Part shown: one piece after another, positions 1-62,677 of the stretch
How the letters are laid out: every line of letters starts with the position of its first letter
How positions within the stretch are numbered: the first letter of the stretch is position 1
Source of the DNA: Bacillota bacterium
Lineage (GTDB): Bacteria; Bacillota_I; Bacilli_A; RFN20; CAG-288
Assembly: GCA_023459795.1 (NCBI GenBank)
Contig: JAEWSP010000018.1
Span: 30,946-94,945, forward strand
Length of the DNA stretch: 64,000 nt
Reading direction: 5' to 3'
Made by a program: the position numbers and the translations under genes
The notes under the pieces: model-generated
What the model was told of the DNA's origin: nothing
The model's input: only the letters and a program-made list of their open reading frames with translations
Database searches by the model: none

Positions 1-334
1 TATTTTTTCAAACAGTTAAAAGCCAAAACTATTTTTAATATTTATTTCTATATATATATACTTTGAAAACTAAATACGTCAATGGCTAAATTAAAATTAT
101 ACAGTATTTAAAAAAGCTACTCTGACATGCCTTTTTCTCTTCCCCTTTTTGCCACTTGTTTTCTTCCTATATCCAAGCAGTGTATAAGAAAGCAACACGT
201 TAGCCGTTCTTTGACGTTTTCTAACTAAAATGGCGGTTATTTTCTTGATTCTTTTCCCCTTTGTTGTAGAATAACCACAATGAGAGAAACTTTTCGTTCT
301 CCTCATCAATTCCAAAAGGAGGAATTCGATTTCT

Positions 335-850: not shown

Positions 851-868
851 CTGTTTCTTAGAACACTG

Positions 869-894
869 GCCGCTGAGAAATCAGCGGCTTTTTT
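869..894 (+). terminator. intrinsic terminator
   Basis: GCCGCTGA-gaaa-TCAGCGGC stem-loop followed by TTTTTT. Confidence 0.75.
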
Positions 895-952
895 GTTTCG
901 GAGATAGGTTTTCGGTTAGAATAAAGAGAACGAGAAAAGGAGAAGACGGAAA

Positions 953-2593: not shown

Positions 2594-2625
2594 CCAACCC
2601 GTTGCATAAATAAGAAATTGTTATT

Positions 2626-2661
2626 GAAAAAGAACCAAAGCATAAGGCTTTGGTTCTTTTA
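2626..2661. terminator. bidirectional intrinsic terminator between convergent genes
   Basis: GAACCAAAGC / GCTTTGGTTC stem with an A-run on the 5' side and a T-run on the 3' side. Confidence 0.7.
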
Positions 2662-2663
2662 TT

Positions 2664-4568: not shown

Positions 4569-4571
4569 AAC

Positions 4572-4868
4572 CTACTTCGCCTCCGTGGCGTGGGCATAGA
4601 CGACAGAGAGCAGGGAGCTGACATGGTCATCGGCAAGAAGGTAGAACACCTTTGTTCCGTCCTTCCTGGTAGAGACAAGGTGTGCTTTCCTAAGCACCTG
4701 GAGCTGATGGGAGATCAGGGACTGGCTGGCTCCTACTTCTTCTACCAGCTGGGAGACGTTCTTCTCCTGGCCGATCAGGCAATAAAGGATCTTGAATCTT
4801 GTGGAATCGCTGGCGACGCTTAGAAGCGTCTCCATCCGATCCAATGTTTCTTCATCCGGTAGATTCAT
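4572..4868 (-). CDS. ArsR/SmtB-family metalloregulator
   Basis: 98 aa. Winged-HTH pattern RFKILYCL...VSQL...GASQSLISHQLQVLRKAHLV. It forms an operon with the P1B-ATPase, separated by a 3-nt gap. Confidence 0.8.
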   Translation of the reverse strand: MNLPDEETLDRMETLLSVASDSTRFKILYCLIGQEKNVSQLVEEVGASQSLISHQLQVLRKAHLVSTRKDGTKVFYLLADDHVSSLLSVVYAHATEAK

Positions 4869-4882
4869 ATATCTGCCTCCTT

Positions 4883-4936
4883 TATGAATGGTGATTCATA
4901 TTTACGCTATTAGTATATATGAATCGTCTTTCATAT
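4883..4936 (-). promoter_or_regulatory. promoter plus two TGAA/TTCA inverted repeats (candidate ArsR operators)
   Basis: On the minus strand: -35 TTGAAA (4936-4941), an 18-nt spacer, and -10 TATACT (4912-4917). IR1 ATATGAA-n6-TTCATAT (4917-4936) fills the spacer. IR2 TATGAAT-n4-ATTCATA (4883-4900) sits just upstream of the RBS. Confidence 0.55.
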
Positions 4937-5012
4937 TTCAAGATATTTCTTTCTTTTTTTGAAAAACCCGAGGTATTGCCCTCGGGCCTTTTCTCCTATG
5001 TCTTTTCTGCTT

Positions 5013-5510
5013 CTACTTTCTAAACAATGTCTTCTCGGTGTCCCCGTCCGTCTTGATCCTAGCAAAAGCGAATAGAACCAGGAAGAGAAGAGACAGACCG
5101 ATATAGACATAGCTTCCCCAGGAAGCTTCGATGTTCGTATTGGCCTGGCTTAGGAAGATCGGGAAGGCGACAAGGCATCCTAGATGGGCCACGTAGAAGA
5201 TATAGAGAATGACAGCCATCCTCTTTTCATACTTCAGCTCCCTCTGGAAAAGGAAGGAGAGCGGGAACAGAAGGAGAAGAAGGGCAAGACCGAAGGCAGT
5301 ATAAAGAAGATTCGTGGCAATCGTCAGATTGCCTCCCGCTTCCGAAAAGCGGTAGACAGTAAATCCGGCAAGGAAAGTCTTGCCTTCTTTCGTGAAGGTA
5401 TCCATAAGGGGAGCAAACATCCAAAGCATCAGAAGAACAGAGAACAGAAGGGAGAGGTAAAAAGGCAGTCTTCTTCTTTCCCTGAGATAGCTGAAATCTT
5501 TCTTTTCCAT
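5013..5510 (-). CDS. hypothetical polytopic membrane protein
   Basis: 165 aa with 4-5 hydrophobic segments; no recognisable motif. Confidence 0.5.
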   Translation of the reverse strand: MEKKDFSYLRERRRLPFYLSLLFSVLLMLWMFAPLMDTFTKEGKTFLAGFTVYRFSEAGGNLTIATNLLYTAFGLALLLLLFPLSFLFQRELKYEKRMAVILYIFYVAHLGCLVAFPIFLSQANTNIEASWGSYVYIGLSLLFLVLFAFARIKTDGDTEKTLFRK

Positions 5511-5574
5511 ACGGTCTCCTCCTTAGGGTGGTATCTACGATATAATAGTATATCGTAAGAAAGGCCACTATCTT

Positions 5575-6591
5575 ATGGAAGAAAAGCAGAAGAATGACTC
5601 GGTGTTCATTAACCTTTTCAAGGGAGCTCTCTCCGGGCTTCTTTCGATGGTTCCCTTCCTGGACAGCAAAAGAGCAAGAGAAGACGTCTTAGTCACCTAC
5701 AGTTCCCGTACCTGGTCCTATATCCTCGGGTTTGCCATTGCTTTCTTTGTCTTCTCCCTCCTTCCCATCTCCGTCATGGAGAAGAACTTCTCCTATACGG
5801 TAAGGCTATTGGAAGCCGGATTCCTGTTTGGATCTCTGGTCGTGCTTCTTCTTCTGGTCTTTTTGGACAAGAAGGAGAAGATCGATCTTCTCCCATTTCT
5901 TCTCTCCCTCATAGGCGGAATAGGGATTGCTCTTATTTTCTATTTTGCCTTTACTCCGGCAAAGCTCTTAAGAGATGAAGAGCCGATTGCAGGAGCAGGA
6001 TTCTACAGCGTAATTATTGCCGTTGGTGGATTTTTATGCGGATACGCCGGGATCTCCATCGGATCCCTTCTAGCCGTCTCCGGTTCCTATGTAGGGCTTA
6101 TCGGAGTGATGTATCCGGCCGTCAGCTTTACGAACACGGATAAGAAGTCCGGAATCCTGATTATGGGAATCCTGTTCCTGGCTCTGTTCTCGGGACTGTT
6201 CCTCGGCCTTTATGCCGAAGGCAAAGACAGCAGAAAGAAGAACAAGGAAGCGATGCAGATCGGTTTCCTTCTTCCGATGCTTGTTATCCTGATAGTCTAC
6301 TTCGCCAAGAACAAGCCCCAAGCTATGGCTGACTCCGTCATGGTCCGGAAGCTGGTGAATTCCTGCTCCCTTATCTTCTTCTTCCTGATTGCCTTGATCC
6401 TTGGCTTATCTTCCCTTCTTCCATTATGGAAGGAACATCCTGCCTTCAAGATTTGGAAAAGGAAGAAGGATCTGGTAGACGGGCTTCTTGTGAAGAATGT
6501 AAAAGAAGAGAAGAAAGAAGATGAAAAAGAAAATGCCAAGGCCTTGGATGTCGATAAGCTGAAGAAGGCTTTGGAAGAAGAGGATAAATAG
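5575..6591 (+). CDS. hypothetical polytopic membrane protein with Lys/Glu-rich C-terminal tail
   Basis: 338 aa with many TM segments. The C-terminus is KKEDEKENAKALDVDKLKKALEEEDK. Confidence 0.55.
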   Translation: MEEKQKNDSVFINLFKGALSGLLSMVPFLDSKRAREDVLVTYSSRTWSYILGFAIAFFVFSLLPISVMEKNFSYTVRLLEAGFLFGSLVVLLLLVFLDKKEKIDLLPFLLSLIGGIGIALIFYFAFTPAKLLRDEEPIAGAGFYSVIIAVGGFLCGYAGISIGSLLAVSGSYVGLIGVMYPAVSFTNTDKKSGILIMGILFLALFSGLFLGLYAEGKDSRKKNKEAMQIGFLLPMLVILIVYFAKNKPQAMADSVMVRKLVNSCSLIFFFLIALILGLSSLLPLWKEHPAFKIWKRKKDLVDGLLVKNVKEEKKEDEKENAKALDVDKLKKALEEEDK

Positions 6592-7314
6592 ATGAGGTTA
6601 GATCGGTTTCTGGCAATCCACGGCTTCGGTTCCAGGAAGTCGGCAAAGAAGATGGTCCATAACGGGCATGTCATGGTAAACGGAGAGAAGACGCTCCTTA
6701 ACGACATGCAGATTTCCGGTACCGATAAGATCACGGTCGACGGAAAGGACGTCGAGAACGTTCCTTTCGTCTGCCTGGTCCTGAACAAGCCCCAGAACTA
6801 TGTCTGTTCCATGCTGGACGACCACTACCCGTCCTGCATGAAGCTGATTCCGGACGAATACCAGAAAAGGGTCCGGATGGTGGGAAGGCTTGATGCCGAC
6901 ACGACAGGACTCTTGATCTTCACGGACAACGGAGTCCTCAACTCCCGGCTTGCCAACCCGAAGTTCAAGGTCACCAAGACGTATGCCGTCGAAGTGAACC
7001 ATATCCTGAAGCCGGAGATGGTGGAAGAATTCCAGAAAGGAAATCTCGATATCGGCCAGGGAGACATCGCCGATTCTGCCGTTCTTGTGATCCAGGACGA
7101 ATACCATGCCGAAGTAACCGTCCACGAAGGCAAGTACCACGAGATAAAAAGACTGTTCGGCAAGTTCGGATACGATGTCATCAAACTGAAACGTCTCTCT
7201 CTAGGGCCGGTGAAGCTCGGGGATGTCGAAGAAGGGAAGTTTAGAAAGGTGAGCGAAGAGGAATACGAATCCCTGTTAGAAGCTACCCACCTTATCAAGG
7301 AGGATCAATTATGA
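6592..7314 (+). CDS. rRNA pseudouridine synthase, RsuA/RluB family
   Basis: 240 aa. N-terminal S4 domain (MRLDRFLA..G.GSRK.A..V..G.V.VNG) and catalytic motif GRLDADTTGLLIFTDNG. Confidence 0.85.
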   Translation: MRLDRFLAIHGFGSRKSAKKMVHNGHVMVNGEKTLLNDMQISGTDKITVDGKDVENVPFVCLVLNKPQNYVCSMLDDHYPSCMKLIPDEYQKRVRMVGRLDADTTGLLIFTDNGVLNSRLANPKFKVTKTYAVEVNHILKPEMVEEFQKGNLDIGQGDIADSAVLVIQDEYHAEVTVHEGKYHEIKRLFGKFGYDVIKLKRLSLGPVKLGDVEEGKFRKVSEEEYESLLEATHLIKEDQL

Positions 7315-7829
7315 ATACTCTCTGCCCGAAATGCGGAAAGGACAATACTTCCACCTTTGTGGATACGAAGCTGAAGACACATGGTTTCTTCTGCGAAGAC
7401 TGCAAGAAGGATTTCGGTGTCGATGACGGCACTGCTTTGAAGAAGAAGGAAGAAGACCTTCTTTCTTTCACATATGACCGGTCCCATGACGGAGAGAAGA
7501 AGACTTTCCGCCTAGTAAGGGATGCAGGCAAGGCAACCCTAACTATCGAAACGGAGAAGGACAAGAAGCGGGACGTATATGAACCTATCGACTTCACTCC
7601 TTATGTCGATTCCTTCCTCTCCCTGCTCTTCGAGAAGCTCTTTGTTTTGGACTGGCCTGAGACAACCAACGGTTTCCTTGTCGGGAAGGATCCCGATACC
7701 TGCACTCTTACCCTCCTATTCAAGGATAAAAGCAGCGTCAGGAAGTCCGGTTTCGTCCGCCTTCCTGTCTACAGCAAGGCACTGGACGAGATCCTCGATT
7801 CCCTTCTCTCCAGCACGAAGGAGGAGTAG
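7311..7829 (+). CDS. hypothetical protein with N-terminal zinc ribbon
   Basis: 172 aa with CPKCG...CEDC. Its ATGA start overlaps the upstream stop, suggesting translational coupling. Confidence 0.55.
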   Translation: MNTLCPKCGKDNTSTFVDTKLKTHGFFCEDCKKDFGVDDGTALKKKEEDLLSFTYDRSHDGEKKTFRLVRDAGKATLTIETEKDKKRDVYEPIDFTPYVDSFLSLLFEKLFVLDWPETTNGFLVGKDPDTCTLTLLFKDKSSVRKSGFVRLPVYSKALDEILDSLLSSTKEE

Positions 7830-8207
7830 ATGAGAACCGACTTCACGAAGATCTCCTTCTGGAAAAGGAATCCGGACAATGTTGCGGATATCCTGAGGCT
7901 GGAGATCGAATGCCTCGTCGACAAGACTTACCTTCTGAACGTAAACGGAAAAGACCGTTCCCTTCCCAAAGAGGAAGGAGACAAGCTTATAGAAGGTCTT
8001 ATTGCTCTGAAGCTGGGCGAGACGAAGAAGGAAGAGAAAGCCTACCTATACGAAGACAGGCCTCAGGACTACCGGATCAAGTTCTTCCTGGTCTTCTCCT
8101 ATCCGGAAGCCACTTATCTAGCCGTAAAGGGAATCGATCCCTTCGGCCAGAAGAACTACAAGGAGATCCAGGCTCTCTTTGCTCCGCTGTTCAAGAAACA
8201 AGACTGA
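7830..8207 (+). CDS. hypothetical protein
   Basis: 125 aa. The ATG directly abuts the upstream TAG. A strong terminator follows. Confidence 0.5.
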   Translation: MRTDFTKISFWKRNPDNVADILRLEIECLVDKTYLLNVNGKDRSLPKEEGDKLIEGLIALKLGETKKEEKAYLYEDRPQDYRIKFFLVFSYPEATYLAVKGIDPFGQKNYKEIQALFAPLFKKQD

Positions 8208-13929: not shown

Positions 13930-14017
13930 GTTTTTTCCTCTGTTAAAAGACCATTATAGCAAAGAAGAGCAACGGAAATGAGGTTGCCCTTGCCCCTCCC
14001 TTTTTGTATAATAGATT

Positions 14018-14100
14018 CACCATCGCGGTGTATACCGTCGAACTTGGTCAGGACCGGAAGGTAGCAGCCATAAGATCGGTGTCCACGTGCGGTGGCTTTT
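14018..14100 (+). ncRNA. ffs: small (4.5S-type) signal recognition particle RNA
   Basis: Conserved domain IV core GGTCAGGACCGGAAGGTAGCAGCC. The closing helix pairs CCATCGCG with CGTGCGGTGG. TATAAT lies at 14007-14012 and a T-run at 14097-14102. Confidence 0.8.
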
Positions 14101-14111
14101 TTATTAAAAGA

Positions 14112-39483: not shown

Positions 39484-39559
39484 GGATCTTTAGCTCAGTT
39501 GGTAGAGCAACTGACCCTTAATCAGTGGGCCAAGGGTTCGAGTCCCTTAAGATCCACCA
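39484..39559 (+). tRNA. tRNA-Lys (anticodon CTT) with encoded CCA
   Basis: Hand-folded cloverleaf. Acceptor GGATCTT/AAGATCC, D arm GCTC/GAGC, anticodon stem ACTGA/TCAGT with loop CCCTTAA, T arm AAGGG-TTCGAGT-CCCTT, discriminator A. Confidence 0.85.
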
Positions 39560-41816: not shown

Positions 41817-42348
41817 GAAGAAGTACTGCTATGTCTGCGAAGGCAAGACAGACGAAGACAGGCTGAAGAAAGCCGGTTGTCTGTTTGTCGTTGTCTCCGG
41901 CGGAAAATTCATCCGCCCGGAGATTTTGTCCTTCCTGTCTCTGGTCTCCAAGAAGCGGAATATAGTTCTTGTCACGGATCCGGATACACCCGGAGATATG
42001 ATCCGGAAGAAGATTGAATCCGTTGTCGGCCCATGCATTAATCTTCACGGGAAGAAGGAACAGGCAACTTATAACGGAAAGCTTGGGATTGCAGAGATGA
42101 GGCAGACCTCTGTAGATGCTCTCCTTGCTTCTTGCATAGAGCATGACAAAGCCATTGAGGAAGAGAGCGGATTCAGCCATGACGACTACCTGGATATGGG
42201 ACTAGAAGGTCTGGGAAGCAAGGAGAGAAGAGAAAGACTTATCAAGAAGTACAGCCTACCTCTTGCTTCCGGTAAGAGCGTCGAAGAAGAATGCCATATC
42301 CTTTCCTTGACCAAGGAAGAGATAAAGGAGGCAATTGCACATGAGTGA
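41806..42348 (+). CDS. rnmV: ribonuclease M5
   Basis: Toprim pattern VCEGKTD...VTDPDTPGDMIRKKI. Its position between tatD and rsmA matches Bacillus. Confidence 0.8.
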   Translation: MDYEKKYCYVCEGKTDEDRLKKAGCLFVVVSGGKFIRPEILSFLSLVSKKRNIVLVTDPDTPGDMIRKKIESVVGPCINLHGKKEQATYNGKLGIAEMRQTSVDALLASCIEHDKAIEEESGFSHDDYLDMGLEGLGSKERRERLIKKYSLPLASGKSVEEECHILSLTKEEIKEAIAHE

Positions 42349-43159
42349 GCAGGATAGAATCCAAGGACTGTTGAAGGAATACGGCTATATCGCCAAGAAG
42401 TCCTTCGGACAGAATTTCCTTATCAACGAAGGAATCATAAGAAGAATCGTCGACCAGATGAAGCCGGAGACTTTCGAGACCGTAATCGAGATCGGTCCTG
42501 GCCTTGGAGCACTGACTCTTCCTCTTTCCCAGAAGAGCAAAAAGCTTTATGCCGTCGATGCAGACAGGGATATGATCACTATCCTCCATGAGATCTTCGA
42601 TTCCAAGAAGAATGTCACCTTGGTCCAGTCCGATTTCCTCCGCTTCGATCCGGACTCTGTCTCCCGGAAGGAAGATAGGCTGCTCATTGGGAACCTTCCT
42701 TACAACATCACTTCCGAGCTTTTTGAATATATGCTTGAAAAAGGGTTTGCTTCTGCCGGTGCCATGGTCCAGAAGGAAGTCTATGAGAAGCTAAGCTATA
42801 CCCCGGGGAAGTCAACCAACACTGCTCTAGGAGCTTTTATCGAAAGCATGGGAAAGCTCTCCCTGCTGACACTTGTCGACCACTCCTCCTTCGATCCTTC
42901 CCCGAAGGTGGAGTCCGCCTTCGTAAGGATTGATACGGATCCGAAGAAGTCGATTTCCTTCTCCCTCTATCCTGTCTATAAGGCACTCTTCCGGAATCCG
43001 AACAAGACCATCCACAACTGCCTCAAGGAGGTGCCGGAATATAGGGACTCCCTTCCTACGCTAAGCCAGGAAAAGCCGGAGCTTCTTTCTTCCAGGGCAC
43101 GGCAACTGGACGTGAAGACACTGCAAAAACTAGCCGAAGAAATCCAGAAGCTTTCCTAG
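42335..43159 (+). CDS. rsmA: 16S rRNA (adenine1518/1519-N6)-dimethyltransferase
   Basis: KKSFGQNFL motif, SAM-binding EIGPGLGALT, and NLPYNI. Confidence 0.9.
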   Translation: MHMSEQDRIQGLLKEYGYIAKKSFGQNFLINEGIIRRIVDQMKPETFETVIEIGPGLGALTLPLSQKSKKLYAVDADRDMITILHEIFDSKKNVTLVQSDFLRFDPDSVSRKEDRLLIGNLPYNITSELFEYMLEKGFASAGAMVQKEVYEKLSYTPGKSTNTALGAFIESMGKLSLLTLVDHSSFDPSPKVESAFVRIDTDPKKSISFSLYPVYKALFRNPNKTIHNCLKEVPEYRDSLPTLSQEKPELLSSRARQLDVKTLQKLAEEIQKLS

Positions 43160-43364
43160 AACTGTTTTTAGGCGCCAAAGGGAATTAATTTTACCGAAAA
43201 AACCAGTTTCAAAACATTTCCTAACCCTTGGGGATGGTTACTACAGCAAAACAGGGTTGCCTTTGTCGGGAATGACTCTACCCAGTTCGCTTTAAATAAG
43301 CTTGAGTAGCCCATTCCATCTTCGGAAATATGTAGATGATTATACTACTCACCTACCAAGAAAA

Positions 43365-44255
43365 CTAATTAAGGAACTTTTCGCAGTTAAATATATTTTC
43401 TTCATAACTTTGTGTTAACCGGTCTTTCATCTCACCCTCTGTAACTTTTCCGTATTTTCTTTCATAAAGAGAAATTATAGAGGTCATTATTGGAGCGGAG
43501 AAACTTGTCCCACTCTTTTCATTAATAACGATTCCATTCTCACATTCGTCTAAACAGATTATATCTAAGCAGGGTAAAAGAAAACAAGAGGAGTTAAAGT
43601 TTGCTTTTTTCCAAACGTTACATTCCTTATCTATTCCTGAAACAGCAATGACATTTCCATACGCGGCCGGGTACAACAAACTATCTGTTCCGGAATTTCC
43701 GGAACTGGCAACAACAATAATTCCTTTGCTTATGCATCTATCGATGGCAGCCCTAATCAAGCCGGAATCGTTCTTTATTCCTAAAGAAATATTGACTATA
43801 TCAATGCCATATTCACAACAACAATACAATGCGGATTCAACTTCTTGAATAGAGGCAATATTATCTTTACCCTCAACATCAAAAATGTAGATATCAGAAC
43901 AACAAGCCAAACCCAAATTATTGTATTCGGAGCAACCAATTATTGAAAATGTACTTAATCCGTGACTGGAATGTTGCTTACGCTCAACAGTGTTGTTAAA
44001 AACAATGTTTTGATTATGATAAACCGAGTTTTGAATTCCGGAATCTAGGACAGCAATTTTCGGAAAATACACAGCTTTTTCGTTACCTTTGGATAAGTTT
44101 ATTTCTTGCAAATAGTAGGCATTGTAGGGGATACTATTACGGTTTTTTGTTAAGCAGAAAAAGAAAGTACAAAAAACAAGCAGACCGGTTACAAGCTTAT
44201 GCCTTCGCATCTTTTTGATTTTCCGGACCCTGCTTTGCCTTATACGCTTGGACAA
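43365..44255 (-). CDS. membrane-anchored subtilisin-like serine protease (peptidase S8), Cys-rich
   Basis: Catalytic triad contexts AVLDSG (Asp), HGLSTFS (His) and SGTSFSAP (Ser). It has an N-terminal basic stretch plus a TM anchor. Local GC is low. Confidence 0.75.
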   Translation of the reverse strand: MSKRIRQSRVRKIKKMRRHKLVTGLLVFCTFFFCLTKNRNSIPYNAYYLQEINLSKGNEKAVYFPKIAVLDSGIQNSVYHNQNIVFNNTVERKQHSSHGLSTFSIIGCSEYNNLGLACCSDIYIFDVEGKDNIASIQEVESALYCCCEYGIDIVNISLGIKNDSGLIRAAIDRCISKGIIVVASSGNSGTDSLLYPAAYGNVIAVSGIDKECNVWKKANFNSSCFLLPCLDIICLDECENGIVINEKSGTSFSAPIMTSIISLYERKYGKVTEGEMKDRLTQSYEENIFNCEKFLN

Positions 44256-44697
44256 ACTTCTTCTTTTTCCGGTATTCGAAAAGAAGAATGATAAAGATAG
44301 CTAATACCGATACGATTTCGACGATATAGCCGGTAACGGAAGAAACGAAGAAGTAGACAAGAGTAAAACTAATCCCTGCCACTACAAAGAAAAAACTGAA
44401 AAGAACGAATCCGTTATTAAAAAGATTCGGATAAGAAAAACTCAGATGGGCATCCTTATTGGATATTTCTTTTGTCGGATACTTTTCTTCTTCTGGCTTC
44501 CCTTTGGAAAAGAAACCAAGTTCAAAGAAGAAGTCTTCATAGCCATAACCAAGAAAGGCAGGAAGGCATAGAATCAGGCTTTTTCCAAAGTACTCCAAAG
44601 ATAAGAACTTTGTGTTTTCCAAGGTAAAACCGTAAACGAGGATTGCCAGGACTACGAATATAGGAGTACAAATCAAACGAAGTTGCCATTTTTTCAT
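44197..44697 (-). CDS. hypothetical 4-TM membrane protein
   Basis: The start is probably MKKWQLRL. It overlaps both neighbouring genes, suggesting coupled translation. Low GC. Confidence 0.5.
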   Translation of the reverse strand: MKKWQLRLICTPIFVVLAILVYGFTLENTKFLSLEYFGKSLILCLPAFLGYGYEDFFFELGFFSKGKPEEEKYPTKEISNKDAHLSFSYPNLFNNGFVLFSFFFVVAGISFTLVYFFVSSVTGYIVEIVSVLAIFIILLFEYRKKKKFVQAYKAKQGPENQKDAKA

Positions 44698-44699
44698 TT

Positions 44700-45530
44700 T
44701 TATTGAAGTCCAAACGCAAACTGACGTTCCCACGAAAATGAGATTGAAATACCATCTTTAATAAAATGAGAATAGATATAGTCGAAAAGCTCAGATAAAC
44801 AAACAGAGACAAAAAAATTCACAACAAACCTTACTAATGCATGTTCGGATAAAACAGAGATAGCAGAAACGACAGCCAAAATGACAGGATTACCAGTAAC
44901 AGCTCCAAAAAGAGCTAAACTAGCCGCCATAACAATAGGCGTTCTGGTTGCCATAAACAATGCCGTAATTCCTTCAACAATAAACCCTGTCCCATAAGAG
45001 AGAATTTTTCTACAGGTGGAGGCATCAATCTTGAAAACAAATTGATCCGGAACATAAATTCCCCACCAAAGTTTTTTCCAAGTTAAATTGAAGGAATTTT
45101 CCCCTTCGCTTTCTTCTTCAAAACCAGAATACTTAATTAGTGCCGATTCATAGGCATCGATGATTGTGTTTTCTCCAACAAGTTCTGCTTCTTCAGCAGA
45201 AAGCCGGTTTTCCAAAGAAGCAATAACGTTTCTAGAAACATCCAAGAAATAGTTGGATCCTTTTTCATCACATTCAGCAAAGACATTATCCAAACTATTC
45301 TTTGCCTTGGAAATGTTAGATAAGATTTCCTTTCTTGACGCAGGTACTTCAATATCACTAATAGAAAGGTTGGAATAGCAGTCTTCAATTTTATCAAGTT
45401 GGTCCTGAACCTCTTCTTCTTTGGCTGAATTTATTCCAACATTAGTTGGACCTTTGGAATTCTTTCCAAAACATAAAAAACTACTCAATACAGTTATGAT
45501 AGTCAATGCTTTTTTTAATGGCACTTGCAT
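44700..45530 (-). CDS. hypothetical secreted/membrane protein: signal peptide, helical acidic ectodomain, Gly/Ala-rich C-terminal TM helices
   Basis: The start is probably MQVPLKKALTIITVL. The C-terminus reads GITALFMATRTPIVMAASLALFGAVTGNPVILAVVSAISVL. Low GC. Confidence 0.5.
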   Translation of the reverse strand: MQVPLKKALTIITVLSSFLCFGKNSKGPTNVGINSAKEEEVQDQLDKIEDCYSNLSISDIEVPASRKEILSNISKAKNSLDNVFAECDEKGSNYFLDVSRNVIASLENRLSAEEAELVGENTIIDAYESALIKYSGFEEESEGENSFNLTWKKLWWGIYVPDQFVFKIDASTCRKILSYGTGFIVEGITALFMATRTPIVMAASLALFGAVTGNPVILAVVSAISVLSEHALVRFVVNFFVSVCLSELFDYIYSHFIKDGISISFSWERQFAFGLQ

Positions 45531-45979
45531 ATTTTTTGCCTCGTTGATAATCATAGTGTGTAGATAACTTAAAGTCAATATCGTGTTTTTTGATTACACC
45601 ACTTTTTTGTTCTTGTTATAAATTGTTTTCTAACACAACTGTTTTTTTATAAGAATCGTCTTTGCTTTGTGTTGCACCATGAGAGCAATTGTAAAGCTCC
45701 TCTTTTGGCTTCAAATGCTTTTCTGAGTTTTGCCCCCAAGAAATTTTGCGGTCTGAAAAGAAGCATATGCTGAACATTTTTCGTCAAAAGCTCTAGACAA
45801 AAACAGATTTGCTTTGGAAAGGGCATTCCGCGAACCATTTTCAAAAAGCAACGTCAATTCCAAAACTTAGATGCCAAAAACTTTCTAAGCTCGTCTTCTA
45901 ATTGCTTCTAATTCATTTGAACGCTTTTGCAACCGCCCCTTCATAAACAACCATTTCCGCTCTTTCCAGTAGCTGCGGC

Positions 45980-46885
45980 TTATTCTTCTTTCTTGTTGTT
46001 CTTCTCTGTTTCTTTTTCTTCTTTCTTCTCCTGCTTATGCTTCTGATGCTCTTTGTAGAAATCCTGATCGATCCAGAGGATCCGTTCCGAGAACTCCGGA
46101 TATTTCTTGAATACGAAATAGCTGGAGAGGATGCCGAGAAGCGCACCGCAGGCATCGGCAATGATGTCTCCGTCCGTATCCGTAACAGCATACCTATAGC
46201 CTGTAAATGTCTTGTAGTAATTCGTCATATCCGTCTCGCTGAGGTGGCAGTTCCCCGTATTCCACATCTCTCCGTTTGCTCCCCCGAGAATCCCCGTATC
46301 CTGATCGATGCAGGCATAAAGATCGTCCGGAATATATTTCTGCATGTTCGTATGGAAGATCAGGTCTGCTCCGCCTTCATACAGTTCCCACAAGGCTTCG
46401 ACGGCAACTCCGAAGAAGAAGCCGAAGAGAAGGCATAAGCCGGTCGCTTGTCTTCCTGTATATCCGTTCTTCTTCATGAGAAGCTTCATCAAGACAAAGC
46501 CTGCCAGGGCAAGCTGTGCCGTTCCTATCGTATGGAGGAATTTATCGAATCCGTAATCCCCGAGGTTGTAGTAGACCTGGCAGGCTTCTCCGAGGAAGAC
46601 GGAGACGAAGAGGTCAAAGGCGATGAACAGATCCACTGGCTTTCCGACACGGAAACCAGTCAGATGTTCGACAATCATCGGTCCCCAGATACCTAGGAAT
46701 GCGCAGGAAGACCCGACGATAACCGTCCTTGCCTGGACCGGATCCCACTGGAAAGGACGATGGGTAGCAATGCCGCCTTCCGGATAGAACGGCCTTACCT
46801 TGCAAAGGGATAGGATTGCAAAGACCATGAGCATGGAGAAAACAGAGGTTTCAATGATATACAGGGTCTTTCGGTAAGATGCCAT
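45980..46885 (-). CDS. hypothetical polytopic membrane protein with Lys/Glu-rich tail
   Basis: 301 aa with about 6 TM segments; GC is back at core level. Confidence 0.5.
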   Translation of the reverse strand: MASYRKTLYIIETSVFSMLMVFAILSLCKVRPFYPEGGIATHRPFQWDPVQARTVIVGSSCAFLGIWGPMIVEHLTGFRVGKPVDLFIAFDLFVSVFLGEACQVYYNLGDYGFDKFLHTIGTAQLALAGFVLMKLLMKKNGYTGRQATGLCLLFGFFFGVAVEALWELYEGGADLIFHTNMQKYIPDDLYACIDQDTGILGGANGEMWNTGNCHLSETDMTNYYKTFTGYRYAVTDTDGDIIADACGALLGILSSYFVFKKYPEFSERILWIDQDFYKEHQKHKQEKKEEKETEKNNKKEE

Positions 46886-55580: not shown

Positions 55581-55814
55581 CTAGGTTATTATAACGTAAA
55601 AAAGGATTCCTTTTCTCTTTTCCCAAGAAAAAGGAAAGCACTTCCTAATTGTTTCTTTTTTCTTCCTAAAAATAATCCTCTTCCTTTTCCCTTTGTTTTT
55701 TCCTGTTTTCTTCTTGAAAAGGGACTTATCATATTGGATCTATAAGTTAAATATTTGCTCTTTGCCTTAATAACCCATAAAATAGAACCGCCTTTTCCCA
55801 AATGGAGGCTTCAT

Positions 55815-58115
55815 ATGAGTAATAGAAAACGTACCGCCTTTGCCGGGCTTCTCTTTTCTGGTTTGCTTTTGATGACATCCTGCTCCTTAAACGCTTCCCG
55901 AGGCTCTACCTCTTCTTCTACCTCCTCTACTTCTGGCGCCCCTTCTACTTCCAGTAAAAAAGCTTCTGCAATCCAGATCGTTCCACCGGATAAGAAAGAA
56001 TACCGTAGAGGAGATGCCTTTGACATTTCCGGTCTTTCTGTTTCTTTGGTTTACGAAGATGGGACCAAAGAAGCAGCAAGCGACTATACCCTAACTTTTT
56101 CCGAAACGGGAGAAGAGATTGCTAACGGCGATATCCTGGATTACGAGGATGGAACCCATACGATCACAGTAGCCGTTACAGGAGTCGGATTTGCCAGCTT
56201 TGACATCTCGACCTGGACAGCAACTCCAAAGAGCAGATACCTGGATCTTACTTCTCTTCCGACAAAGACCATCTATATTGTCAAAAACCAGGAAGCTTTC
56301 TCTTCGGAAGGCCTGGGCGCTATTTATACCGTAATTTTCCAGGGATACCTGAACGGAGTCAAGAAAACGGAACAAAAGGATACGACTGTTACCGATCTTG
56401 TTACCTTCAGCATAGATGGAAAGACTCTTTCCGAAGGAGATGTTTTCACCGTAGATGATTACGGAACGAAAGCCGTAACCGTTACTTATTCAGAAGACGG
56501 AAAGACGGTCACAGCAGTTTTCTATATCACAATCGTAAGCGGAGACACGGCTCCGAAAAAATATACGGATACAACAAATCCCATCGTCACCGGTTCGAAT
56601 ACGATCAAGCTGACCATCACCAATCCCAACTCCGCTCATACGACCGGAACCAACAACTACATCGCTCCCGATGATGTAGATGCAACGAAGTACAGCATCC
56701 CTAACTACTATGCCAAGAAGAATTATGAAAACTGGCGTTACCTTCCGACAACCGGAAAGGTTCCGCTTTTGATTGTTCCGGTATTCTTCACGGATCAGAC
56801 TCAGTATGATACAACGGCAAACAGGGATCTGATGAAGAAGTGCTTCTTCGGAAAGAGCACGGACCTGAATTTCGAATCCCTGCATTCGTATTACTACAAA
56901 TCCAGTTACGGAAAACTGGATTTCACCGGCTCCATTGCTCCTTCTTTCTATCCTCAGGTCAGTATTCCTGCCCTGCAATCCACTTCTACGGAGTCTTTCA
57001 GCGAGGCATCCATGTTAACTATGCTGACCGCTCTTCCGGATTACCTGAAGACCCTTGGATATGATCTCACTCAATATGATTCCGATTCTGACGGATATTT
57101 GGATAGCGTCTGGATGATATACGGACACAGCACGGAAGCAAGCTCCACCTCCAACTGGTGGGCTTATTCCTCGACCCTTTCTGTGATCCCCGCAAGCGTA
57201 GCTTCTCCGACCGTCAACAACTTCGGATGGACTTCCTTTGATTTCCTCAATGATGACTTTAGCGGAGGTTCCTCTATTGCAAATGCCGGAGGAGATGCCC
57301 ACGTCCTGATCCATGAAACCGGACATCTTCTCGGCCTCTCGGATTATTATTCCTACTATTCCTCGACCTACGATCCTCTTGGCGGATACGATATGATGGC
57401 CTATAACGTCGGAGATCATAATCCTTATTCCAAACTCCTTTATGGTTGGGTGGATCCTTACCTCGTATACGGAAACAGCACCATCACCCTCAGCCTCAAT
57501 ACCAAAAACAATCACCAGGTCGTCCTGATTCCATATGATTCCAAAGACTACAGCGATACAAAGTATCAGGAAACCATCCAAAACGCAGACGGAACAACCT
57601 CAACGAAGACCTGGGTGAATCCCTATGATGAATATATGATTCTGGATTTCTACACGAACGCCAACATGGACAGCCAGTCCTATGACTGCTATGGGTCTGC
57701 TCCGATTAATGGAACCGGCGTTAGGATATACCACGCCGATCACCGCCTTTTCAAAGCCTCCGGTATTATCACCACCGTAACCGAATACTCAAATCCGGAT
57801 GCTCCTCTTTCCACAACGGATCTAGTAAATGCAGCAATCAATAATTCGGAAGGCGGCGATAGAGCCGAATCCGGTTTCGGGCTTCCTACCAGCTACGATG
57901 CCTTTGATGAACTCCGTTTGATAGCTAAGGACAAGTCTATCTTGGACCTGAATGCAACACAGAAAACCTATAAGGGTGATTCCACTGCTCCTTCCGTCCT
58001 CTTCAAAGCCGGCAGTTCCTTCTCTCTTTCTTCCTACTCTGCTTCCTTCCCGAAGACAACGACATTCAACAACGGCAAATCCTTCAGCTACAATATCTCC
58101 TTCTCCAACAACTAA
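55815..58115 (+). CDS. surface lipoprotein with Ig-like repeats and an HExxH zinc-metalloprotease domain (M6/InhA-like)
   Basis: The start is set at MSNRKRTAF, with lipobox LMTSC. Two or three Ig-like repeats (IQIVPPDKKEYRRGDAFDISGLSV...). Motif HETGHLLGLSDYY. Confidence 0.6.
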   Translation: MSNRKRTAFAGLLFSGLLLMTSCSLNASRGSTSSSTSSTSGAPSTSSKKASAIQIVPPDKKEYRRGDAFDISGLSVSLVYEDGTKEAASDYTLTFSETGEEIANGDILDYEDGTHTITVAVTGVGFASFDISTWTATPKSRYLDLTSLPTKTIYIVKNQEAFSSEGLGAIYTVIFQGYLNGVKKTEQKDTTVTDLVTFSIDGKTLSEGDVFTVDDYGTKAVTVTYSEDGKTVTAVFYITIVSGDTAPKKYTDTTNPIVTGSNTIKLTITNPNSAHTTGTNNYIAPDDVDATKYSIPNYYAKKNYENWRYLPTTGKVPLLIVPVFFTDQTQYDTTANRDLMKKCFFGKSTDLNFESLHSYYYKSSYGKLDFTGSIAPSFYPQVSIPALQSTSTESFSEASMLTMLTALPDYLKTLGYDLTQYDSDSDGYLDSVWMIYGHSTEASSTSNWWAYSSTLSVIPASVASPTVNNFGWTSFDFLNDDFSGGSSIANAGGDAHVLIHETGHLLGLSDYYSYYSSTYDPLGGYDMMAYNVGDHNPYSKLLYGWVDPYLVYGNSTITLSLNTKNNHQVVLIPYDSKDYSDTKYQETIQNADGTTSTKTWVNPYDEYMILDFYTNANMDSQSYDCYGSAPINGTGVRIYHADHRLFKASGIITTVTEYSNPDAPLSTTDLVNAAINNSEGGDRAESGFGLPTSYDAFDELRLIAKDKSILDLNATQKTYKGDSTAPSVLFKAGSSFSLSSYSASFPKTTTFNNGKSFSYNISFSNN

Positions 58116-59175: not shown

Positions 59176-59277
59176 TACTTTATCTTCCTTTTTTCGATAG
59201 AACTTATTATACATAATAATTCCTTTATTACCACCATTTCAAACTGTGTTTTTGGCAAAAAAACCTTGTCAATAAAG

Positions 59278-59674
59278 TTTTCCACAATTTATAAAAATAG
59301 AAAAGAAGTATACAAACAGTGTTTTCGAATCGATTTACCACCATTTCTATAGTGGTGGAGAACAGAGGTGGATAACAAAGTAGTAAAGTGGATAACTTTG
59401 GCATGTTATCCACCACTTGTCCACCAAAAATAGAGTTATCAACCGGTTGTTTGTAACCCATAATTATTATGGTGGATAAGTGCAAAAAGCCTTTATATAT
59501 AGCAAAGATTTTGTTGTTGATAACTTTCCTTTTGTGGATAACTTATCAACTTATCCACCGTGAAGTTATCCACACCCCGTTTAACCACCGTATATCCACT
59601 ATACACCACGGTGGATAAGTGGTTTTAATATTTTTTATACTTAACGATTTCTTCTCATATAAGTTGGTGGATAA
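59278..59674. promoter_or_regulatory. oriC part 1: DnaA-box cluster upstream of dnaA
   Basis: At least 12 matches to TTATCCACA with 2 or fewer mismatches on both strands. Perfect copies lie at 59533-59541 (minus) and 59566-59574 (plus). TTATCCACC/GGTGGATAA copies start at 59367, 59406, 59471, 59551, 59610 and 59666. Confidence 0.85.
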
Positions 59675-59743
59675 CTTTTTTCTTTCTTCTATCCAGAACG
59701 AATTAGGGTATAATCAAGAGGCTTTGAGTAGGAGGGGTGGAGA

Positions 59744-61135
59744 ATGAAAGAAACAACAATCAACCGGCAGACAGAAAGAATCTTCCTGCTCGTCCTGGAA
59801 AATCTGAAAGAAAAGGTTCCGCAGAATATCTACGACAATGTTTTCGGTGACGGATCTTTTGGCCTGAAATCATTGGATGGCGGAAAGGCTGTTTTTGTTT
59901 CCGATAGTGAGTCTTCTGCTCAGCTTATCAAAGCTCTTTATCTCACTCCTCTTACCAATATTCTTCACGATGTAACATCGGATGAATATGAGGTGGAAGT
60001 GACAGATAGAGCCAGTTATTCCAGAAGAAAAATAGCGGTTGAGGATGCCTCTGCGCGTTTCTTCCAGAACAGCCACCTATCTCCCGCCTTCCAATTCGAT
60101 AATTTTGTAGTAGGATCCAATAATAAAGCTGCTTATCAGGCCGGGTTATTCGCTGTTGCAAAACCAGGCGTCAGCAATCCTATCTTCCTTTATTCCAAAT
60201 CCGGCATGGGAAAGACTCATTTACTGCAGGCAATCGGTAATGCCTACAAGGAGCAGCATCCGGACAGCAACGTCCTTTATATTACATCGGATGATTTTAT
60301 TGAAGAATTCGTTAAATATAGCAAAGGACTCAAAGATAGCGAGAATCTGAAAGACTTTTTCTCTACTATCGATATGCTTCTTGTAGATGATATTCAATTC
60401 CTTGCCGACAAAGACAAAACTCAGACAATGTTCTTCAATGTGTTCAATCTTCTTGTTGGACAGGGAAAACAAATTGTCTTAACCTCTGATAAGTCCCCGA
60501 TGCAGCTCTCGGAAATGGGAGATGAACACCTTCAGGACAGACTCGTCAGTCGTTTCAGCGGAGGACTTTCTATCTCCATCACGACTCCGGCCAGAGAAAC
60601 GATGATCGAGATTTTGAAGATGAAGATACGGAATAACGGATTAGATCTTTCTCTATTTGCTCCGGAAGTCCTGGAATACCTCGCCAACAACTACAGTACT
60701 AATGTCCGTGTTCTGGAAGGAGCCTTCACAAAAGTCCTCTTCGAAATGACGATTGAGAAACCCCAGGGAAAGATTACTCTTCCCTTCGTGAAGTCCATCT
60801 TCGAAGATGATGAATCCCATCGCAAGATGAAAGGCAAGGTCAGCGTAGAAGAGATTATCTCTATCGTATCCGACTACTACTCTTTGACTTCTTCCCAGCT
60901 GAAAAGCAAAGTCCGGACGAGTCAGATTGCCTTAGCCAGACAGATTGCTATGTACCTAAGCAGAAACGTCCTCTCTCTCCCTTATCAGGAGATTGGAAAA
61001 GCCTTCGGCAAGGACCATACGACCGTTCTTGCAAACGTTCAGAAGATTGAATCCATGAAGGGGAAGGATACGAGAGTCGAAACAGCACTTCTAGAGCTGA
61101 AAAAGACGATCAGTAAGGAGAGCAGCCAAGCATAA
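59744..61135 (+). CDS. dnaA: chromosomal replication initiator DnaA
   Basis: 463 aa. Walker A SKSGMGKTHLL, box VII, and C-terminal DNA-binding helix GKAFGKDHTTVL. Confidence 0.95.
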   Translation: MKETTINRQTERIFLLVLENLKEKVPQNIYDNVFGDGSFGLKSLDGGKAVFVSDSESSAQLIKALYLTPLTNILHDVTSDEYEVEVTDRASYSRRKIAVEDASARFFQNSHLSPAFQFDNFVVGSNNKAAYQAGLFAVAKPGVSNPIFLYSKSGMGKTHLLQAIGNAYKEQHPDSNVLYITSDDFIEEFVKYSKGLKDSENLKDFFSTIDMLLVDDIQFLADKDKTQTMFFNVFNLLVGQGKQIVLTSDKSPMQLSEMGDEHLQDRLVSRFSGGLSISITTPARETMIEILKMKIRNNGLDLSLFAPEVLEYLANNYSTNVRVLEGAFTKVLFEMTIEKPQGKITLPFVKSIFEDDESHRKMKGKVSVEEIISIVSDYYSLTSSQLKSKVRTSQIALARQIAMYLSRNVLSLPYQEIGKAFGKDHTTVLANVQKIESMKGKDTRVETALLELKKTISKESSQA

Positions 61136-61138
61136 GAC

Positions 61139-61170
61139 AACAGGCTTTCGGGAAACCGAAGCCTGTTTTT
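61139..61170 (+). terminator. intrinsic terminator after dnaA
   Basis: CAGGCTTTCGG-gaaa-CCGAAGCCTG followed by TTTTT. Confidence 0.75.
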
Positions 61171-61180
61171 CTTTCTTCTT

Positions 61181-61500
61181 GGTGGATTGAGTGGAAAACG
61201 GTACTTTTATCCACAGAAATCTGGGGATAAAAGAGCATATAATTTCATTAGTTTCGCTTAGCTTTTCGATATAAATAAAGGAAATTTTATTAAATTGCTG
61301 TTCAGTCTAAAAAGTTATCCACATTTCCACCGCCCTTATTAATATCCTTATTTCGTATTTGAAGAATGACATTCTATAGCCGGCAAAGCCGGCCCCTTCT
61401 CGGAAAACGGATAACAAAACAAATTTCGGCACGAAAAAGACCAGTTTATCGATTTACCTATAGCACCTACAAATATATATATTTATAATATATATATCGC
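61181..61500. promoter_or_regulatory. oriC part 2: DnaA boxes plus AT-rich candidate unwinding element between dnaA and dnaN
   Basis: Perfect TTATCCACA at 61207-61215 and 61315-61323, and TGGGGATAA at 61222-61230. An almost pure A/T run, largely alternating TA, spans 61469-61497. Confidence 0.75.
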
Positions 61501-61522
61501 TAATAAAGGGAGATCTAAAATC

Positions 61523-62677
61523 ATGAAATTGACAATAAAGAGAACGGAACTTCTACGCCTTCTGACATACGCTATCCAGGCTATTCCGGCAAAGTCTGCC
61601 GAAGCCCAGTATATGAATTTTCTGATCGACTGCGAAGAGGACCATGTCGATATCATTGCCTCGGATGGCAATGTCTCGACCAAGATCAATCAGCCGATGA
61701 AGGATCCCAAAGGCAATGACGTCATTCTCAACATCGAAAAGGGATTGATCCAAACTCCCGCCAGAATGCTTTTAGATATCGTTGCTAAGATGGGCGGAGA
61801 TGTCGTCACCTTAGCATTAGTGGATTCCAATTTCCTGAATATCTCGGATGACACCACGGATTTCAATCTCGTTACCAAAGACGGAAAAGAATACCCGGAT
61901 GTCAATCTTACGGTTCCGGAAGGCAAGAAAGGTTTCGCTGTCTCCCTCAAGGATATGAAATCCCTCTTTGATACTACTAGCTATGCCGTTGCTACCCGTG
62001 GACCGAAGGAACTCTTCTACGGCATCAACGTCAAGGCTCATGGTGGCAAGCTTTATTTCATGGCTACCGATAGTTATAGAATGGCTCAGAATGCTGTTTC
62101 CGAACCGGATACCGAAGCAGAATTCTCCTTCACCTGCCCGATCCATGCTCTCAGCATGGTGACCGGCATCGGACAGACCGGAAACTGCCAGATCTTCATC
62201 GATGATCAGTCTGCTCTCTTCGTCACGGATGGCATTGCTCTTTCTACCAGACTTCTTAGAGGAGACTTCCCGTCTGTTGATCGTCTTATTCCGCCGGAAT
62301 TCCCGTATCAGGTAACGGTCAAGACAAGCGAATTCCTTTCTGCTGCAGACCGTGTAAAGATCATCTCCAGCGTCGAAGACAGGAACTCCCAGGTACGTTT
62401 CACTATCAGCCGCGAGAACGGCGTGACGATTTCCGCCCGTTCCACGAATTTCGGTACCTCCCAGGAAGTACTGAAGAATGCTACTTTCCAGATCAAAGAA
62501 GGAGAAGACGTCTTTGAGATCGGCTTCAATGTCGACTTCGCCATTGCTGCTGTCAAAGCCTTGGCAACGGATTCCTTCACCTTCGTCTTTGCTTCTGCTA
62601 CCCGTATGTTTATGGTAAAGAACGATAACCCTGAGAACATTCAGATTATTACTCCGATCCGTATGTCTTCCTTCTAG
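61523..62677 (+). CDS. dnaN: DNA polymerase III beta sliding clamp
   Basis: 384 aa with an N-terminus typical of beta clamps; directly downstream of dnaA. Confidence 0.92.
   Translation: MKLTIKRTELLRLLTYAIQAIPAKSAEAQYMNFLIDCEEDHVDIIASDGNVSTKINQPMKDPKGNDVILNIEKGLIQTPARMLLDIVAKMGGDVVTLALVDSNFLNISDDTTDFNLVTKDGKEYPDVNLTVPEGKKGFAVSLKDMKSLFDTTSYAVATRGPKELFYGINVKAHGGKLYFMATDSYRMAQNAVSEPDTEAEFSFTCPIHALSMVTGIGQTGNCQIFIDDQSALFVTDGIALSTRLLRGDFPSVDRLIPPEFPYQVTVKTSEFLSAADRVKIISSVEDRNSQVRFTISRENGVTISARSTNFGTSQEVLKNATFQIKEGEDVFEIGFNVDFAIAAVKALATDSFTFVFASATRMFMVKNDNPENIQIITPIRMSSF

Follow-up and report, generated by a model that had tools for sequence, protein, structure and literature searches.

Introduction

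In the LanP and cytolysin CylA-type systems, a dedicated extracellular protease of the S8 (subtilase) family matures an antimicrobial precursor. Pore-forming colicins have a variable front part and a conserved membrane-inserting C-terminal domain, with a hydrophobic hairpin between amphipathic helices, and the immunity proteins against them are small polytopic inner-membrane proteins with three to four transmembrane (TM) segments. Colicins are made by Gram-negative bacteria and are not exported through Sec, their pore domain is built of ten helices without beta-hairpins, and no protease is involved. PAMP of Propionibacterium jensenii is a 198-residue pro-protein with a 27-residue Sec signal peptide, and its active peptide is a C-terminal fragment freed outside the cell by proteolysis (PMC5756557). 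In the operons of bacterial gasdermins (bGSDMs), which often lie in defence islands, an adjacent protease, mostly caspase-like (C14/CHAT), is proposed to activate a membrane-permeabilising protein of ~250-300 residues; bGSDMs are cytosolic, have a beta-sheet core and an N-terminal palmitoyl-Cys at position 3-4, and lose a short C-terminal peptide (10.1101/2021.06.07.447441). Here we analyse a 64,000-nucleotide stretch of contig JAEWSP010000018.1 (assembly GCA_023459795.1, positions 30,946 to 94,945), hereafter the window, from a Bacillota bacterium. The window contains a small islet of three genes, which we call A, B and C, encoding a putative exported protein, a predicted four-TM membrane protein and an S8 subtilase, respectively.

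A and B belong to a new gene family that is common in some gut Bacilli, and the closest scoring relatives of C lie next to genes annotated as putative toxins. We tentatively favour, short of calling it probable, a reading in which A is a protease-processed, membrane-active effector resembling a bacteriocin, B is its immunity partner and C is a dedicated protease specific to this lineage.

A low-GC islet with an alternative allele

A, B and C are three consecutive genes on the minus strand, as an earlier reading of the same DNA by letters and open reading frames (ORFs) alone (the sequence-only reading) had stated (Table 1). A starts at an ATG with GAGG 8 nt upstream and stops at TAA 44702-44700, and B runs from ATG 44697-44695 to TAA 44199-44197, which leaves a 2-nt spacer between the two on the minus strand. 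B and C overlap by 14 nt when C starts at ATG 44210, the choice of NCBI and of most gene callers, or by 59 nt with the alternative start TTG 44255 (296 aa). The sequence-only reading held that all three genes overlap. This stands for B and C and fails for A and B, where an overlap would need the upstream GTG 44733 as the start of B, chosen by no gene caller. The same reading took the spacing to imply a fixed stoichiometric unit, which goes too far: tight spacing fits co-translation and does not demonstrate stoichiometry. In public assemblies, gene callers give A 276 or 284, B 166 and C 281 or 296 residues. A protein identical to A is present in independent assemblies, and NCBI records label A 'hypothetical protein'. 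A promoter-like site (10 of 12 consensus positions) lies directly 5' of the A start and before neither B nor C in a consensus scan, although it is a consensus match only, and such sites are no more numerous in the region than in shuffled sequence.

The GC content is 0.32-0.39 over the islet and 0.47-0.55 in its flanks (~36% versus ~49%), the drop falling exactly across 43160-45950, and one base composition spans all three genes. The host belongs to an uncultured lineage of gut and digester Bacilli. The immediate neighbours are rsmA/ksgA and a gene for a DUF2238-like membrane protein, within housekeeping flanks that hold tRNA-Lys, mnmE, tatD, rnmV and rsmA/ksgA on one side and the DUF2238 gene, prs, a HAD hydrolase gene and ispE on the other; dnaA and dnaN are 14 kb away. 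The islet borders are marked by neither direct nor inverted repeats, and we found no tRNA or integrase gene there. A phage or plasmid origin was considered and rejected, as searches of IMG/VR, INPHARED and PLSDB found no relatives of A and a search of IMG/VR none of C. We also note that the DUF2238-like protein closes with a K/E-rich, highly charged tail (KEHQKHKQEKKEEKETEKNNKKEE; 3' end of the gene at 45980-46060), whose coding sequence is a purine-rich, repeat-like stretch (direct repeat D1) abutting the islet border.

We compared the window with contigs encoding an identical KsgA protein (10 contexts among those listed). In 8 of the 10 the islet is present, at 99.8-100% identity to the window, and it is missing from the other two (L034 and L040, from different samples). 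The flanks of these two agree with the window (98.6-99.5%) as far as 43180 and again from 45955, and between them lies only a 481-bp remnant of B, 95% identical to B, with A and C missing. Both remnants carry identical lesions, so that one alternative allele was recovered. The lesions include a 1-nt deletion in codon 4 and a later 2-nt insertion (two frameshifts), 15 nonsynonymous versus 5 synonymous codon changes, and the loss of P46 and F48, both invariant in the B family. Because ~25 nt homologous to the 3' end of A remain upstream of the B remnant, this allele must have arisen from the full islet through two distinct deletions, one taking A with its promoter and the other C, after which B decayed. 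Loss of A before decay of B is the order expected for a toxin-immunity locus, in which the toxin goes first and the immunity gene later. Taken together, base composition, gene layout and allele comparison suggest that the islet is a horizontally acquired, strain-variable, single operon in the order A-B-C.

A and B form a two-gene family

Protein A begins with KK followed by ~14 hydrophobic residues, which reads as a signal-peptide-like N-terminus, and its homologues have an equivalent KK with a hydrophobic run of 13-15 residues. The N-terminal half is acidic (35 D+E versus 23 K+R) and variable, and the C-terminal module of ~135 residues is conserved in family alignments. The module starts at a conserved (R)SEG motif and finishes with an invariant terminal Gln; its invariant residues are G143, L154, W155, P161, F164, A170, C173, R174, L207, T212, G213, V237, I257, G260, I261 and Q276. 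The sequence-only reading had described a signal peptide, an acidic helical first half and a small-residue-rich hydrophobic block, and this description holds on our own reading of the sequence; the segment it quoted, GITALFMATRTPIVMAASLALFGAVTGNPVILAVVSAISVL, is residues 183-223. The module is predicted to contain, in this order, a beta-hairpin, an amphipathic helix, a short, small-residue-rich hydrophobic hairpin (helix-turn-helix with an invariant T-G-(N)-P turn), another amphipathic helix and a beta-hairpin before the C-terminal Gln. The AlphaFold models of A from which this layout was taken reach a pLDDT of 48.9 for the whole protein (8-sequence alignment) and 62.5 for the C-terminal module alone, too weak for fold assignment. 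On a lipoprotein check, the N-termini of A and C contain no canonical lipobox (SFLC and FFFC, respectively).

Protein B has hydrophobic segments at about residues 8-26, 40-62, 95-115 and 121-143, and it is basic at the N-terminus, in the middle loop and in the tail. The basic ends suggest that B is a four-helix inner-membrane protein with both termini in the cytoplasm. Neither A nor B has a match beyond noise in Pfam, NCBIfam, PADLOC, PHROGs or the PDB sequences.

A word-indexed search of 5.8 billion proteins recovered A alone. An exhaustive phmmer search of 1.84 billion representatives yielded, besides A itself, 4 clusters (50%-identity clustering) at 31-36% identity, and a profile search added 5 further clusters, so that the A family comprises ~10 clusters (homologues P0020-P0028). 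Two of these, comprising 95 and 222 sequences, are frequent in gut metagenomes. We examined more than 20 loci from six lineages (L014-L023, L024-L030 and L041-L044). Every A-like gene is directly followed by a gene for a protein of 119-158 residues with the four-segment layout of B, and the two genes are either separated by no more than 7 nt or overlap by 1-35 nt. The family signature is an A-like protein with W..(KK)FLW..V.LP.GF.IKLSA.TCR ... SLLAG.TGN ... terminal Q, followed by a four-TM gene of 119-166 aa, and the A-B pair of the window fits it in the alignments and across all loci examined. By these comparisons, A and B constitute a small two-gene family without prior annotation.

No S8 protease gene lies within 6-9 kb of the A homologues at these loci. 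A tblastn search with C against L011-L030 gave matches only in three loci that had been fetched through homologues of C itself, and the Pfam tables of L041-L044 list no S8 protease. Conservation therefore extends to A and B only, the protease being peculiar to this islet. The sequence-only reading had made its proposal depend on the three genes co-occurring in other genomes: the pair does so in all six lineages, the trio with the protease in no other, so that co-occurrence fails for the trio only.

The contexts of the pair are diverse. TetR regulators adjoin it in L014, L015 and L024, and LytTR response regulators with AgrC-like kinases adjoin it in L019 and L020. In L024 a defence-type HerA gene lies 4 kb away. 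In L017 and L018 a defence island (1-8000) stands to the left, with Hachiman HamA and its helicase, Dcm with EcoRII, and a DRT4 reverse transcriptase (714 bits); it has replaced the left flank, and A beside it is reduced to its C-terminal 142 residues. Sister contigs of the same species, that of homologue P0025, carry full-length A with differing left flanks (L041-L044), and the left flank of the pair is thus a variable hotspot in this species. The L017 reverse transcriptase and the A homologue were considered as one system and rejected as such, since the former is a stand-alone DRT4, sister contigs carry full-length A-B without it, and the A copy at its side is N-terminally truncated. N-terminally truncated A variants occur in three lineages (clusters P0001, P0025 and P0026; 197, 189 and 142-161 residues, several contigs). 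They keep the C-terminal module without the signal peptide and may be pseudogenes or internally initiated products.

Two minor points concern these loci. Genes of 105 codons, in pairs or singly, lie near A-B in L022 and in L042/L043 (Table 1); they have no Pfam match and look by eye like small toxin-fragment/immunity cassettes. A 124-aa ORF 5' of A in L041 was considered as a SipW-like dedicated signal peptidase and dropped, having no Pfam support.

C is a minimal subtilase

C matches the Pfam Peptidase_S8 model PF00082 at 84.1 bits (cut-off 21.8; E = 1.3e-23) and aligns to residues 26-250 of mature subtilisin BPN' with 27% identity and 64 bits. In this alignment D56, H83, N172 and S236 of C occupy the positions of D32, H64, N155 and S221, so that the catalytic triad and the oxyanion residue are intact. 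Residue 50 of C pairs with mature residue 26 of BPN', and only ~25 signal or anchor residues precede the mature-like part. Neither Pfam nor the alignment gives an inhibitor_I9 propeptide (~70-80 aa), unlike in classical secreted subtilisins. The sequence-only reading was thus right about the triad and about the lack of a long propeptide, for which the alignment leaves no room. Its count of at least 12 Cys also agrees with the 15 found. Since many of these Cys stand where subtilisin has small or hydrophobic residues in its interior (for example 'alyccceygidivnislg' versus 'GIEWAIANNMDVINMSLG'), the Cys-rich protein C need not be disulfide-rich.

C scores below the NCBIfam and PADLOC cut-offs of named S8 families (QhpE 79.5 versus 165, mycosin 70 versus 279, PatA 57 versus 421, IteS 12 versus 900), and PADLOC IetS matches it with an E-value of only 1e-5. 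Three of these sub-threshold NCBIfam matches, QhpE, mycosin and PatA, are substrate-specific maturation proteases. C is a divergent S8 protease that stands alone: outside its own cluster, its best match among the 5.8 billion proteins is a protein of Bacillus benzoevorans at 33% identity. C scores 91-111 bits against S8 relatives that are linked to putative toxin genes, versus 64 bits against BPN', and a crude neighbour-joining tree places it near, not inside, the S8 group linked to SAR2788 proteins.

Relatives of C adjoin putative toxin genes

The SAR2788-linked group is found on chromosomes and plasmids of Bacillaceae, namely B. benzoevorans (L011/L012), B. cereus (L047) and Priestia megaterium (L049). 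Here the gene of a small S8 protease with an N-terminal anchor or lipobox is followed by that of an NF038340 protein and then by a small third gene. NF038340, the 'SAR2788 family putative toxin' model, detects the Bacillus proteins at 71-197 bits. After the signal peptide, these proteins have an acidic ectodomain and a single hydrophobic segment, and they end in a C-terminal domain that varies. The cassette has the look of a polymorphic toxin-immunity system to which a dedicated protease belongs. It resembles the islet in several respects. Both have three genes; the S8 proteases, at 30-34% identity the best-scoring relatives of C, are small, have an N-terminal anchor or lipobox and, like C, lack a classical propeptide; and the pro-protein, like A, combines a Sec signal peptide with an acidic ectodomain and hydrophobic sequence and is followed by a small gene. 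The cassette differs from the islet in that the protease gene comes first, the single hydrophobic segment of the pro-protein is followed by a variable, soluble-looking C-terminal domain, and the product of the third gene looks cytoplasmic and not four-TM. The function of the SAR2788 family is itself only predicted.

Two further kinds of locus show the same association. On the P. megaterium plasmid WSH-002_p2 (L048), an S8 gene adjoins the gene of a TIGR04450 'putative immunity/bacteriocin fusion bifunctional protein' (301 bits), whose ectodomain lies between a signal peptide and a Cys/Gly/Ala-rich C-terminal peptide. The top plasmid match of C (111 bits), on pPOD2000, an 8.4-kb plasmid of B. 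altitudinis, is preceded by a 219-residue protein in which a signal peptide and an acidic helical ectodomain are followed by a hydrophobic C-terminal peptide rich in Ala and Gly. Homologues of the 219-residue protein (~30% identity; plasmids of B. thuringiensis and Bacillus sp.) adjoin S8 genes and, in L050 and L051, genes of two-TM peptides of 51-53 residues. The family (219-242 residues) is unnamed, has a Cys-containing end (...AGAGLCNWN.RGF...C.P.) and has an S8 neighbour in 3/3 divergent members. The S8 gene and the gene of the 219-residue protein make up most of the cargo of pPOD2000, which is a mobilisable plasmid.

Like A, the pPOD2000-type and TIGR04450 pro-proteins combine a signal peptide and a helical or acidic ectodomain with a small-residue-rich hydrophobic C-terminal part that has a helix-Pro-helix look, and their loci always include a neighbouring S8 gene and, close by, a gene for a small membrane protein. 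They have no sequence similarity to A, however; their hydrophobic peptide is ~55 residues long, contains Cys and stands at the extreme C-terminus without flanking beta-hairpins; and some of their S8 partners, unlike C, have long N-terminal extensions or propeptides. We found no experimental work on these cassettes.

Homology of A or B to the partners of C's relatives was considered and rejected. A has no hit to NF038340 or TIGR04450 in NCBIfam at E <= 1, and hhalign probabilities are below 2% (0.3% for the A family against the B. benzoevorans NF038340 member). The likeness of A to these pro-proteins lies in architecture and gene neighbourhood only.

Comparison with described systems

Among systems with experimental background, PAMP is similar to what we propose for A, in that an antimicrobial is cut extracellularly from the C-terminus of a Sec-exported pro-protein. 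It differs in that the proteases are external and not dedicated, and no gene for a cognate protease or membrane partner has been described; PAMP has no sequence relation to A (no family match). Colicin-like features of the islet are the variable front of A, its conserved C-terminal part with a predicted hydrophobic hairpin, and the polytopic character of B, as in an immunity protein. Searches for Pfam colicin pore domains in A and colicin immunity families in B gave no hit at E <= 1.

The sequence-only reading had set aside gasdermin-protease and LanP systems, and in both cases we agree. The N-terminus of A resembles a signal peptide, the predicted structure of A is mainly helical, and neither Pfam nor PADLOC gave a gasdermin match. 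The islet contains no short precursor peptide, Lan modification enzymes or LanT, only three genes between housekeeping flanks. PADLOC-DB 2.0 gave no credible match for A and B of the window, the homologues P0025 and P0026 or two B-like proteins. By analogy, the islet would work most like PAMP and the predicted Bacillaceae cassettes of an S8 protease, an exported pro-toxin and a small partner. It differs from those cassettes in its new pro-protein and partner families and in its gene order.

Possible function of the islet

We infer the following course of events from the arrangement of the genes and the build of their products. A would be exported through Sec, with its variable, acidic helical N-terminal domain serving in targeting and its conserved C-terminal module inserting into membranes. 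It would act antagonistically, as a membrane-active pro-toxin, and B would protect the producer. C, a propeptide-less minimal subtilase, would be displayed on the outer face of the membrane or released there, in this lineage only. It may cut A in a flexible, low-confidence linker (~residues 133-145) beside the conserved 'SEG' motif, and this cleavage would release or activate the C-terminal module.

Several observations suggest this assignment. The combination of a variable N-terminal half with a conserved module in A, the four-TM layout of B with its ends probably inside, and the accessory contexts of the family point to a toxin and its immunity protein. The three genes are inherited together, the A-B pair is kept in all lineages examined, and in the alternative allele A was lost before B decayed. 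In addition, the nearest relatives of C are linked to exported pro-proteins with a build like that of A, and three of its sub-threshold NCBIfam matches are to maturation proteases. The proposal of the sequence-only reading, a protease-matured membrane-active effector with a cognate membrane protein, thus gains from the A-B linkage, the operon layout and the toxin context of C's relatives, and loses its conserved trio.

Other observations weigh against this assignment. A has no tie to a known toxin fold: fold searches, made with low-confidence models, returned only generic helical or membrane-bundle matches, and no sequence similarity of A to any bacteriocin, toxin or pore-former family was found. 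With ~60-80 hydrophobic residues, A could stay in the producer membrane as an integral protein after Sec export. A was not found in plasmid or phage collections. As no A homologue outside this species adjoins a protease gene, the A family as a whole cannot depend on cleavage by a dedicated protease. The grouping of C with toxin-linked S8 proteases rests on pairwise scores at ~32% identity, and we found no experimental papers on the 'putative toxin' families, whose names are predictions of database curators. Finally, the B-only remnant is a pseudogene and as such no direct evidence of an orphan immunity gene that functions.

The missing protease at all other A-B loci would also be expected if the linkage were incidental, with A-B a non-antagonistic membrane or surface pair and C an ordinary secreted subtilase, used for nutrition or surface-protein turnover, that arrived on the same foreign DNA. 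C is about as similar to classical subtilisins as many S8 proteases are to one another. However, the 14-nt overlap of B and C leaves no space for a separate promoter, and all three genes have the same base composition. C is also devoid of the propeptide that free-living degradative subtilisins need for folding, and its best-scoring relatives all adjoin exported pro-proteins of a similar general build. We consider incidental linkage unlikely, though far from negligible.

The defence genes and regulators near several family members raise another explanation, in which A-B is a cell-autonomous membrane module of the producer, acting in phage exclusion, abortive infection or envelope stress, and C is a recruited extracytoplasmic protease that activates or regulates it. 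The logic would be that of protease-triggered membrane effectors, transferred to the outer face of the membrane. Consistent with this, the hydrophobic region of A is long enough for membrane retention after Sec export, the pair adjoins DRT4, Hachiman and restriction-modification genes in L017/L018 and lies close to the HerA gene in L024, TetR and LytTR regulators adjoin several members, and N-terminally truncated A is frequent in three lineages. On the other side, A and B have no PADLOC or PHROG match, most family loci are outside defence islands, and DRT4 is a self-contained single-gene system whose insertion region in L017 truncated A. A variable exposed N-terminal domain with a conserved membrane module suits a split between targeting and toxin at least equally well. 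We regard a cell-autonomous function as rather unlikely.

That A is a C-terminally anchored surface protein (an adhesin or a receptor-masking protein), with B as insertion or assembly partner and C shedding the ectodomain, would fit the variable, acidic, helical ectodomain and the conserved hydrophobic C-terminal part but is very improbable, as the ectodomain is small (~110 residues) and has no known adhesion domains or repeats, and the most conserved part has beta-hairpins and an invariant terminal Gln predicted outside the membrane, which is unusual for a mere anchor.

If A is indeed a protease-processed effector with B as its immunity protein, the islet would be a compact bacteriocin-like system that works without a leader-peptide ABC transporter or modification enzymes and gets by with three components, namely a pro-protein that leaves through Sec, a tethered subtilase and an immunity protein in the membrane. 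The 'putative toxin' and S8 cassettes, now known by curators' names alone, would gain a first functional foothold, and an unannotated gene pair of common gut Bacilli would join the genes of inter-strain competition. The presence/absence polymorphism provides natural producer and target strains, which makes the hypothesis directly testable. If it is wrong, A-B remains a conserved membrane module without known relatives.

A wider view, which we regard as doubtful, is that A-B represents a new family of Sec-exported membrane-active toxins with polytopic immunity proteins in gut Bacilli, and the islet its natural three-component version, in which a dedicated S8 protease without a propeptide frees the toxic module. 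Seen alongside the SAR2788, TIGR04450 and pPOD2000-type cassettes, the islet would then hint at a broad, hitherto uncharacterised class of large pro-bacteriocins in Bacillota that are Sec-dependent and come with their own subtilase.

Other features of the window

Table 1 Coordinates of the islet, its genes and other features. Positions are those of the window or of the contig named.
Feature	Sequence	Position	Strand	Basis or remark
Low-GC accessory islet, ~2.8 kb	Window	43181-45954		GC drop and comparison with contigs L034/L040
Gene A, 276 aa, putative exported protein, unannotated family	Window	45530-44700	-	ORF
Gene B, 166 aa, four hydrophobic segments, partner of A	Window	44697-44197	-	ORF
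Gene C, 281 aa, S8 subtilase	Window	44210-43365	-	ORF; Pfam PF00082
A residues 1-22, signal-peptide-like N-terminus (MQVPLKKALTIITVLSSFLCFG)	Window	45465-45530	-	Sequence reading
A residues 138-276, conserved C-terminal module	Window	44703-45119	-	Family alignments
Promoter-like TTGACT-17-TATGAT	Window	45578-45550	-	Consensus scan
C catalytic codon D56	Window	44043-44045	-	BPN' alignment
C catalytic codon H83	Window	43962-43964	-	BPN' alignment
C catalytic codon S236	Window	43503-43505	-	BPN' alignment
S8, NF038340 and small-gene cassette	L012	6001-8258		NCBIfam match
S8, NF038340 and small-gene cassette	L047	3231-5630		NCBIfam match
S8, NF038340 and small-gene cassette	L049	3336-5501		NCBIfam match
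pPOD2000-type cassette	L045	2513-5033		
pPOD2000-type cassette	L050	2779-5197		
pPOD2000-type cassette	L051	2791-5119		
105-aa genes near A-B	L022	2112-2750	-	
105-aa genes near A-B	L042/L043	3321-3638	-	
rsmA/ksgA	Window	42335-43159	+	
DUF2238-like membrane protein gene	Window	45980-46885	-	
tRNA-Lys(CTT)	Window	39484-39559		
Small bacterial SRP RNA	Window	14017-14101		
786-aa exported protein gene	Window	55755-58115	+	
dnaA	Window	59744-61135		
dnaN	Window	61523-62677		
Low-GC spacer	Window	59215-59743		
Low-GC spacer	Window	61136-61522		

Some further features lie outside the islet (Table 1). The tRNA-Lys gene is directly 5' of mnmE, and because the longest mnmE ORF (GTG 39560) abuts it, the true start of mnmE is probably that of the 452-aa call. 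A small bacterial signal recognition particle (SRP) RNA is also encoded in the window. The 786-aa exported protein begins like a lipoprotein (LLLMTSC) and contains a Ser-rich linker, a hint of an Ig-like domain and an HETGH zinc-metalloprotease motif; its Pfam matches are sub-threshold only (Big_3, Reprolysin_5). The presence of dnaA and dnaN places the window at the chromosomal replication origin, and the dip in GC content at 58-62 kb (0.40-0.43) is probably due to the oriC spacers and not to another island.

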